Shown: positions 30,954 through 31,083, numbered from the stretch's first letter. The stretch is 64,000 nucleotides of DNA from a virus (IMGVR_UViG_3300031134_000001:160001-224000), one strand, 5' to 3'. Program-made: numbers and translations. The notes: generated by a model from the letters alone, not told the origin.

Positions 30954-31083
30954 GGGTATGTAGCTCAGTTGGTAGAGCAAGGCTCTTCGTGGGAATGCGC
31001 ACCCCCACACCGGCTTAATAGCCGGCGCCGAAAGGCAGCGACCAAAGCCTAGGTCCTGGGTTCGAGTCCCGGCATATCCACCA
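30954..31083 (+). ncRNA. tRNA-Ala-like RNA 1, anticodon loop replaced by 61-nt three-hairpin domain
   Basis: Acceptor GGGTATG/CATATCC (G3.U70), A73, CCA; canonical D arm, AGGCT/AGCCT stem, AGGTC, T arm CTGGG-TTCGAGT-CCCGG. Confidence 0.85.

Follow-up and report, generated by a model that had tools for sequence, protein, structure and literature searches.

The window analysed here is a stretch of 64,000 nucleotides (nt), bases 160001-224000 of the virus record IMGVR_UViG_3300031134_000001. This record, 271,026 bp long and with direct terminal repeats, is the genome of a 271-kb jumbo phage. The window contains an array of transfer RNA (tRNA) genes, and within this array, at positions 30954-31083, lies a tRNA-shaped gene in which 61 nt stand in place of the anticodon loop. 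This gene, referred to here as mimic 1, is genuinely derived from a tRNA and specifies an RNA unable to decode. The explanation that we favour, with a confidence slightly short of even, is that it provides a non-decoding, processed and probably alanylatable tRNA scaffold with an exchangeable arm, which acts as a decoy or a handle. The structural part of this scaffold reading is well supported, and the decoy or handle function is one that we infer from sequence.

A tRNA body with a cassette in place of the anticodon loop

The Rfam tRNA model (RF00005) matches positions 30954-31080 with 55.1 bits (gathering score 29; E-value 3.9e-9 for the whole window). The alignment places all parts of the tRNA model except for four loop positions, and the 58 extra nucleotides all fall within the anticodon loop. 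Together with a parse of the sequence it gives the following features.

30929-30953, + strand: 5' leader with three GTTTC motifs (at 30929, 30939 and 30946), a motif common to other tRNAs of the array
30954-30979, + strand: 5' part of the outer body, with acceptor strand GGGTATG, U8 and A9, D arm and A26 (Rfam alignment and parse); identical in the related contigs L022, L028, L035, L037 and L038
30954-30960 with 31073-31079, + strand: acceptor stem, 7/7 pairs including G3.U70
30963-30978, + strand: D arm, with G18 and G19 present (parse)
30980-30984, + strand: 5' strand of the anticodon stem, AGGCT, pairing 5/5 with 31046-31050
30985-31045, + strand: cassette of 61 nt in place of the 7-nt anticodon loop; its minimum-energy fold is three hairpins
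30989-31008, 31010-31025 and 31027-31036, + strand: the cassette hairpins of the minimum-energy fold, the last with a GAAA loop
31046-31050, + strand: 3' strand of the anticodon stem, AGCCT (parse)
31051-31083, + strand: 3' part of the outer body, with variable loop AGGTC, T arm, acceptor strand CATATCC (containing U70), A73 and CCA (Rfam alignment and parse)
31056-31072, + strand: T arm, a 5-bp stem with loop UUCGAGU (parse)
31080 and 31081-31083, + strand: A73 and the encoded CCA (parse)

A preliminary description of this DNA had claimed perfect acceptor, D and T arms with G3.U70, A73 and CCA, and the Rfam match and the parse show its coordinates and anatomy to be right. The replacement of the 7-nt loop by 61 nt with three hairpins, also claimed there, is what the minimum-energy fold of the interior gives, and its view of a tRNA-shaped gene that does not decode agrees with an interior that holds no readable anticodon. 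The three-hairpin fold has an ensemble frequency of 53% and a z score of -2.0 against shuffled sequences. We take this fold to be real, and it is only modestly better than those of the shuffles.

A 7-nt anticodon loop with U33 and a readable anticodon is absent from mimic 1, where the 5-bp stem closes 61 nt. With introns disallowed, ARAGORN calls neither a tRNA nor a transfer-messenger RNA (tmRNA) at this position. With introns allowed, it reports a glycine tRNA, Gly(tcc), with a 54-nt intron. This would suit a tRNA gene whose insert is removed and whose halves are joined to form a decoding tRNA, for example one with anticodon UCC or UCG in a loop CUUCCAA or CUUCGAA. There is also a precedent in the Lak megaphages, whose tRNAs contain 'enigmatic introns', one of which is predicted to encode a tRNA (Devoto et al., bioRxiv 10.1101/356790). 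The Gly(tcc) call is nevertheless a mechanical one. Run with introns allowed (-i) on five alleles of the elements described below, ARAGORN returns the anticodons tcc, tta, ttc, aaa and ctt, no pair of alleles restores the same anticodon, and one allele of mimic 1 (allele B) yields no U33-containing 7-nt loop by any simple excision. The insert of 61 nt is far below the size of a group I intron, and a glycine or arginine anticodon on a G3.U70 body would mistranslate, placing alanine at the wrong codons.

The machinery for splicing was also sought. An Rfam scan of 30600-35000 with E-values up to 1 gave no intron, hammerhead or other ribozyme family, and a ribozyme within the insert was rejected; a candidate hammerhead ribozyme at 32771-32869 has no Rfam match at this threshold either. 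The phage genome has no match to tRNA-intron endonuclease, RtcB or RNA ligase (PF01974, PF01139, PF09414). It has none to T4 Rnl1 (PF09511) either, which is a weak negative as the control for PF09511 was positive in no genome. Splicing to a normal tRNA, the outcome that the preliminary description saw as fatal to its proposal, is very unlikely, since the anticodon would differ from allele to allele or be missing, and the searches for splicing enzymes in the phage were empty.

The Lak tRNAs, and those of other huge phages, resemble mimic 1 in being oversized, in carrying the insert in the anticodon region and in being left untyped by bacterial tRNA finders. The Lak inserts are read as introns in tRNAs of defined isotypes (Thr, Tyr, Phe and Gly), whereas the alleles studied here give no consistent anticodon. 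As described below, the phage elements further differ in that the nested tRNA is circularly permuted and the body carries alanine identity elements; the one tRNA-containing Lak insert is a likeness to the sister allele of mimic 1.

Exchange of the arm and a nested permuted tRNA in related phages

Related contigs were reached through a neighbouring tail-like protein together with a 60-amino-acid protein. The loci reached through proteins P0003, P0004 and P0006 end short of the tRNA array, and scans of viral contigs for close relatives with the tail-like protein and another protein, used singly, returned nothing. The 60-amino-acid neighbour encoded in the window is itself not on record, and a homolog search with it gave its own cluster only. 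The exact pattern of the 3' half of mimic 1 had 0 matches in metagenome and viral contigs.

Contigs from four other metagenomes cover the region. The flanks of mimic 1 (30944-30979 and from 31051 onward) are kept in these contigs, and the arm between them (30980-31050) is swapped whole for 111 other nucleotides in three independent samples. A paralog downstream, mimic 2, has 22 nt in place of its arm in one sample. The two genes, a third tRNA-like gene that lies between them and the alleles recovered are as follows.

31436-31556, + strand: mimic 2, of the same body plan as mimic 1 with G3.U70, A73 and CCA (Rfam tRNA, 49.5 bits)
31266-31414, + strand: third aberrant tRNA-like gene, class-II-like and without CCA, with a T arm and an acceptor-like stem
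Mimic 1 allele A (the window and L022-L024): stem AGGCT/AGCCT, interior of 61 nt with three hairpins
Mimic 1 allele B (L028:10186-10356, L037:748-918, L038:3039-3209 and L035:3282-3451): stem TGATC/GATCA, interior of 101-102 nt
Mimic 2 allele A (the window, L028, L037 and L038): stem CCGTC/GACGG, interior of 53 nt
Mimic 2 allele B (L035): stem TGGTC/GATCA, interior of 11 nt

The anticodon stem is paired 5/5 in each of these four alleles, and all five of its pairs covary. Compensatory changes also separate the paralogs: acceptor pair 4:69 is U-A in one and C-G in the other, and T-stem pair 49:65 changes from C-G to U-A. In relatives a single C-to-T change occurs in the T stem of mimic 1, where the pair is retained as G.U. 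G3.U70, A73 and CCA are invariant across mimic 1, mimic 2 and all alleles, and G2:C71 is present throughout. Because the stems covary and are always paired, and because G3.U70, A73 and CCA do not vary despite the change of arm, these alignments indicate that body and stem are maintained as RNA structure and that the arm is free in its content. The standing of mimic 2 as a companion of mimic 1, put forward in the preliminary description, is supported by these compensatory changes and by relatives that swap the arm and keep the body.

The interior of allele B of mimic 1 begins with a T arm (GGGGG, UUCGAGU, CCCCC), which is followed by a 3' acceptor strand (TATCCGC) and an A, a 10-nt linker, a 5' acceptor strand (GCGGGTA), a Leu-like D arm and an anticodon arm (CCGGC-CTAGAGA-GCCGG). 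The two inner acceptor strands form 7/7 pairs. When the interior is unpermuted ARAGORN calls a tRNA of 94-95 nt, a call made for 0 of 500 shuffled sequences. Judged by this order of parts, the cassette of allele B is a circularly permuted class-II tRNA, in which the outer anticodon stem doubles as the variable arm of the inner tRNA. A reading of allele B as two tandem tRNAs was rejected; the two would score 33.7 and 36 bits with Rfam and have only 5/7 and 4/7 acceptor pairs, against 7/7, 7/7 and 5/5 pairs in the nested reading. As far as could be found, a nested circularly permuted tRNA would be the first in a phage.

The linker of allele B, GTCTCATT, resembles the GTTTCA leader that precedes tRNA 5' ends. 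It is reasonable to suppose that a cut by RNase P at the inner 5' end would produce a two-piece, two-headed RNA. If so, the arrangement offers a testable route, from RNase P to a two-piece RNA, for the 'enigmatic introns' of huge-phage tRNAs.

The permuted arrangement is found in allele B (L028, L035, L037 and L038) and, in reduced form, in mimic 2. The interior of mimic 2 in the window consists of a T-arm-like hairpin (31468-31486, loop UUCAACU) followed by a 7-bp acceptor-like hairpin closed by four bases (31487-31504), and as modelled it is the 'top half' of a permuted tRNA without a D or anticodon arm. Mimic 1 of the window has no inner T arm or acceptor. Between its second hairpin (CCGGC...GCCGG), with the sequence preceding it, and the anticodon and D arms inside allele B there is a marginal local similarity that 25 of 500 shuffles equal in score (p ~0.05), so that the evidence for kinship between the two cassettes is suggestive. 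We also considered a bolder proposal that joins these elements into a family of conjoined tRNAs. Here the anticodon stem of an alanine-accepting outer body would serve as the variable arm of a nested permuted tRNA, an inner RNase P cut behind the copy of the leader motif would give a two-piece RNA with two acceptor ends, and mimic 1 of the window would be a trimmed, one-headed version. Such RNAs could be non-ribosomal carriers of alanine, or exchangeable decoys against host defences by which the acceptor ends or bodies of tRNAs are attacked or sensed. We hold this proposal to be unlikely, if worth keeping in view.

Circularly permuted tRNA genes were reportedly described by Soma and colleagues in 2007 in Cyanidioschyzon merolae, and in some other algae and archaea. 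In the permuted tRNAs of C. merolae the 3' half lies upstream of the 5' half with a short linker, a layout shared by allele B and reduced in mimic 2; mimic 1 of the window keeps at most the lower half of a permuted tRNA. Genes of the C. merolae type are free-standing and are matured through a circular intermediate by a splicing endonuclease and a ligase, whereas the phage version is nested and no such enzymes are detectable.

In the third tRNA-like gene a bulged acceptor of 8 bp is combined with a long anticodon-type stem and a T arm, and there is a weak Rfam match to the tmRNA 3' end at 31387-31404. The central variable domain of this gene (~31324-31383) is swapped for other sequence in relatives. 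Mimic 2 and the third mimic are missing from L022-L024, lost in a deletion that runs from the 3' end of mimic 1 to the similar 3' end of mimic 2.

In an alignment of four lineages the array is 95-99% identical except where whole blocks have been swapped, namely tRNA-Tyr, an element of 114 nt, both arms and the variable domain of the third mimic. A gene for an HNH_3 homing endonuclease is present in the array of some relatives:

L022:14234-14788, also in L023 and L040: HNH_3 homing-endonuclease gene, absent from the window at ~32330-32460

A likely cause of the block-wise mosaicism is this gene. In published work, phage tRNA clusters are rearranged through the action of a homing endonuclease, and a host defence is also shown to cleave tRNA-Tyr (PMC13096335). 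Movement of the cassette is explained by recombination, given this precedent and the block-wise replacement. Taken further, the same evidence would allow mimic 1 to be debris: a former tRNA with an anticodon arm scrambled by endonuclease-driven recombination, still transcribed and processed and without function. The loss of mimic 2 and the third mimic in one lineage is in keeping with this, as is the annotation of comparable elements in phage KVP40 as pseudo-tRNAs. We think it improbable, although with a chance that should not be neglected. The helices of the body and of every cassette are intact, stems covary between alleles and between paralogs, each lineage examined retains at least one such gene, and comparable elements recur in unrelated large phages, that of KVP40 being kept in 43 vibriophage genomes.

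Alanine identity and possible function

AlaRS, the alanyl-tRNA synthetase, needs no more than G3.U70 and A73, even on minihelices that lack an anticodon, as Hou and Schimmel reportedly found in 1988 and Francklyn and Schimmel in 1989. As these elements suffice for AlaRS, mimic 1 RNA should be alanylated if it is made and folded. The rest of the body carries little of alanine. An exact copy of its 26-nt 5' half is found in 17 cellular tRNAs, which ARAGORN types as Phe, Lys, Val, Ile or Gly and which all have G3-C70, and none of the recovered tRNA-Ala genes contains it. By these comparisons the body of mimic 1 is that of a generic class-I tRNA, with an alanine identity that rests on U70 and A73 (and G2:C71); since the same 5' half serves G3-C70 tRNAs, this amounts to one C-to-U difference at position 70 plus A73. 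Descent from a tRNA-Ala was rejected as unsupported, given the 5' half matching Phe, Lys, Val, Ile and Gly tRNAs, and the alignment of the body with a tRNA-Ala(AGC)-like contig of a straw metagenome is a case of generic similarity.

The alanine identity asserted in the preliminary description thus stands as far as G3.U70, A73 and G2:C71 are concerned, all present in every allele, and falls short for the body, which is generic and has a 5' half not typical of tRNA-Ala. Its further point, that the elements retained are exactly those sufficient for AlaRS without an anticodon, is borne out by the invariance of G3.U70 and A73 in all alleles.

In the explanation that we favour, mimic 1 would be cut from the array transcript by tRNA-processing enzymes, with RNase P acting at the 5' end, and the RNA would end in the encoded CCA. 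The host AlaRS would charge it with alanine because of G3.U70 and A73. It would work through its tRNA-shaped top half, the likeliest role being that of a decoy or sponge. The targets would be host factors, tRNA-directed defence toxins for instance, that recognise the acceptor/T-arm half of tRNAs, and the cassette would be a variable module exchanged by recombination within the array. A GTTTC motif lies at most 25 nt upstream of 6 of the 10 5' ends of tRNAs and tRNA-like genes in the array, including Tyr, Gln, Asn and all three mimics, at a density in the window of about 1 per kb. This suggests that the mimics may mature by the same route as the real tRNAs, and that GTTTC may serve them in common as a leader or as a signal for processing.

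The tRNA clusters of phages have come to be recognised as anti-defence loci: hosts cut specific tRNAs, and phages supply their own copies. A non-decoding body with alanine-charging signals and a swapped arm would, if the explanation is correct, be a different use of the tRNA fold, as decoy, handle or carrier.

Several observations weigh against a decoy or handle. All 24 runs that hold the sequence provide DNA contigs or doubtful small shares, which leaves expression, processing and charging to be judged from sequence. The G3.U70 pair could be a product of drift, as the 5' half is shared with G3-C70 tRNAs and other stems of the family have also become G.U through C-to-T changes; in favour of selection, the G.U pair at 3:70 is retained in both paralogs and all alleles while the neighbouring pair 4:69 has been replaced on both sides. 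Individual copies are dispensable, as the lineage without mimic 2 and the third mimic shows. The identity of the mimics to close relatives is not above that of flanking sequence, so purifying selection is not demonstrated; nor is the identity of mimic 1 between the window and L022 proof of it, because whole blocks are near-identical between lineages. No target for the decoy was identified. Among enzymes that use Ala-tRNA, FemAB and aminoacyl-phosphatidylglycerol synthase are absent from the phage genome. No AlaRS was detected in this genome, and Ro60/Rsr (TROVE, PF05731), the partner of YrlA-type RNAs, has no match there.

An alanine-charged RNA without an anticodon invites comparison with tmRNA (SsrA), which shares with mimic 1 the alanine-type acceptor (G3.U70, A73 and CCA), the T arm and the lack of an anticodon. 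In two-piece permuted ssrA genes the T arm and 3' acceptor precede the 5' acceptor, as they do in the relatives of mimic 1 and in mimic 2. A small rescuer of this kind would enter stalled ribosomes without a codon and tag or release the peptide. A frame of seven codons, ATG...TAA TAG, is present at 30995-31018, and Rfam models for permuted tmRNA and the tmRNA 3' end match the neighbouring mimics with 12-20 bits, below the gathering score of 47; these weak matches arise because of the permuted order of T arm and acceptor. Hairpins enclose this frame, and the alleles do not preserve it as a tag. It ends in the loop of hairpin 2, and the matching loop of allele B is a tRNA anticodon loop. One allele of mimic 2 has just an 11-nt loop. 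Whereas tmRNAs are 230-400 nt long, mimic 1 is 130 nt long and has a full D arm and a canonical anticodon stem, and no pseudoknot is predicted. The tmRNA search of ARAGORN (-m) finds none in the genome, which also lacks SmpB (PF01668). We regard a tmRNA-like rescuer as the least credible of the alternatives, with hardly any chance of being correct. The ribosome rescue or alanine tagging suggested in the preliminary description has therefore to be set aside, there being no pseudoknots, no ARAGORN or Rfam tmRNA call, no phage SmpB and no conserved tag frame.

The position of the mimics within the array suggests another role, in which the body only recruits RNase P and other enzymes, punctuates the array transcript to free small messenger RNAs, and/or stabilises and presents a cassette that does the work. 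The ribosome-binding site of an open reading frame (ORF) of 51 amino acids always has a mimic about 35 nt upstream of it: mimic 2 in the window, and mimic 1 in L022-L024 after the deletion. The conserved parts are those that matter to RNase P, which needs the acceptor/T half only and works better with a 3' CCA, and the cassette varies as a cargo would. As the position before the 51-amino-acid ORF persists after the deletion in L022-L024, punctuation stays alive as an explanation, at a low probability. Nearby real tRNAs could do the punctuating, and the retention of a canonical 5-bp anticodon stem, a full D arm and G3.U70 is left unexplained. The cassettes are tRNA parts rather than an obvious small RNA or aptamer. 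A search of the phage genome for antisense or primer-binding targets of the mimics gave chance-level 13-15-mers only, with no convincing antisense target among them.

There are precedents for a tRNA-shaped module that serves RNase P/Z processing or stability and not decoding, namely mascRNA of MALAT1, the viral tRNA-like RNAs (vtRNAs) of the gammaherpesvirus MHV68, and engineered tRNA scaffolds. These are eukaryotic, viral or artificial and are generally not aminoacylated, whereas mimic 1 has intact AlaRS identity elements and CCA. The tRNA-Other of Bacillus cereus (PMC3399842) is a non-translational bacterial tRNA-like RNA with a regulatory phenotype. It differs from mimic 1 in being chromosomal, in having an anticodon arm of normal size and another identity, and in its unrelated sequence.

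Similar elements in other phages and the context of the array

Pattern scans revealed other tRNA bodies with arms of 50-80 nt in contigs of large phages and metagenomes. When the acceptor was left unconstrained the scan gave diverse acceptors, none of them of the alanine type; with the 3' end fixed as TCCACCA, six families have G3.U70 and three A3-U70. Gapped-pattern matches in metagenomes often span two adjacent tRNAs, and only those with 7/7 acceptor pairs were kept. One of the G3.U70 elements adjoins two normal tRNA-Ala genes in a 360-kb phage with 51 tRNAs. The elements in contigs L057 and L061 have a common body with a different arm, which repeats the cassette pattern.

Phage KVP40 has an element annotated 'tRNA-Pseudo-4/5' (L019:4568-4684) of the same plan, with a full body, a 5-bp closing stem, an insert of ~59 nt, A73 and CCA; its A3-U70 pair is not of the alanine type. 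The element occurs in 43 vibriophage records with 80-100% identity, annotated as a pseudo-tRNA or a hypothetical protein. The stable RNA species 1 and 2 of phage T4 (rnaC and rnaD) are likewise aberrant RNAs, without an assigned function, from a phage tRNA cluster; all that rnaC retains of a tRNA is a T arm and an acceptor-like end. Neither the KVP40 nor the T4 elements have a sequence relationship to mimic 1.

With insert-bearing or pseudo-tRNAs of large phages already on record in the Lak megaphages and KVP40, the 'undescribed system' of the preliminary description is overstated. Aberrant and insert-bearing tRNAs of large phages are known and unexplained; what is new is that the arm can be swapped and that sister phages have a nested permuted tRNA. 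The case also carries a warning for annotation, as such genes are missed by standard tools or mislabelled as intron-bearing Gly, Phe or 'stop' tRNAs.

A contig of Psychrobacter sp. (L081:7386-7411 and downstream) carries the same 26-nt 5' half with a truncated arm of ~12 nt and a T arm, and has no ARAGORN tRNA. It could represent either a prophage remnant or a further tRNA-like gene without an anticodon.

The array in the window comprises tRNAs for Tyr, Ser, Gln, Asn, His, Thr and Leu, identified with ARAGORN and Rfam, to which Rfam adds two oversized matches, that of mimic 1 and one at 31436-31553 for mimic 2. Upstream of tRNA-Tyr, a stretch of ~680 nt without a long ORF (30043-30720) is ~97-98% conserved in relatives and may represent a large structured RNA at the head of the array; in L022 it is interrupted at ~30442 by ~180 nt of inserted sequence. 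The array spacer at 30821-30934 (114 nt) is present in the window and L022, and is absent or replaced in L028, L038 and L035. Three lineages retain another spacer, at 31084-31255 (~170 nt), with 95-97% identity, and one contig of run X16 has lost it by deletion.

The phage is probably a nucleus-forming one. An ORF at 22603-24288 encodes 561 amino acids with 89% identity to a protein of a related contig that carries a precomputed Pfam match to Chimallin_Phikzvirus, and a PhiKZ_MCP match lies near this protein among the precomputed Pfam hits of the relative. The chimallin label rests on these precomputed matches of 89%-identical relatives, because direct searches with the ORF of the window were empty: hmmscan against a local copy of Pfam gave no family and did not reproduce the chimallin match, and tblastn against GenBank phages at an E-value of 1e-5 gave no match. 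The ORF looks like a very divergent lineage of nuclear-shell proteins. Public runs with the sequence or near relatives are DNA metagenomes from the phyllosphere, straw, dairy, plastic surfaces and food production.

Two further genes of the window deserve mention.

52622-53857, + strand: phage-encoded tRNA nucleotidyltransferase (CCA-adding enzyme; PHROG 2244, E-value 7.5e-106), given as context only
7508-8410: protein with NADAR (E-value 1.9e-34) and DUF488-N3a (E-value 1.3e-9) matches, a candidate anti-defence gene that may reverse ADP-ribosylation

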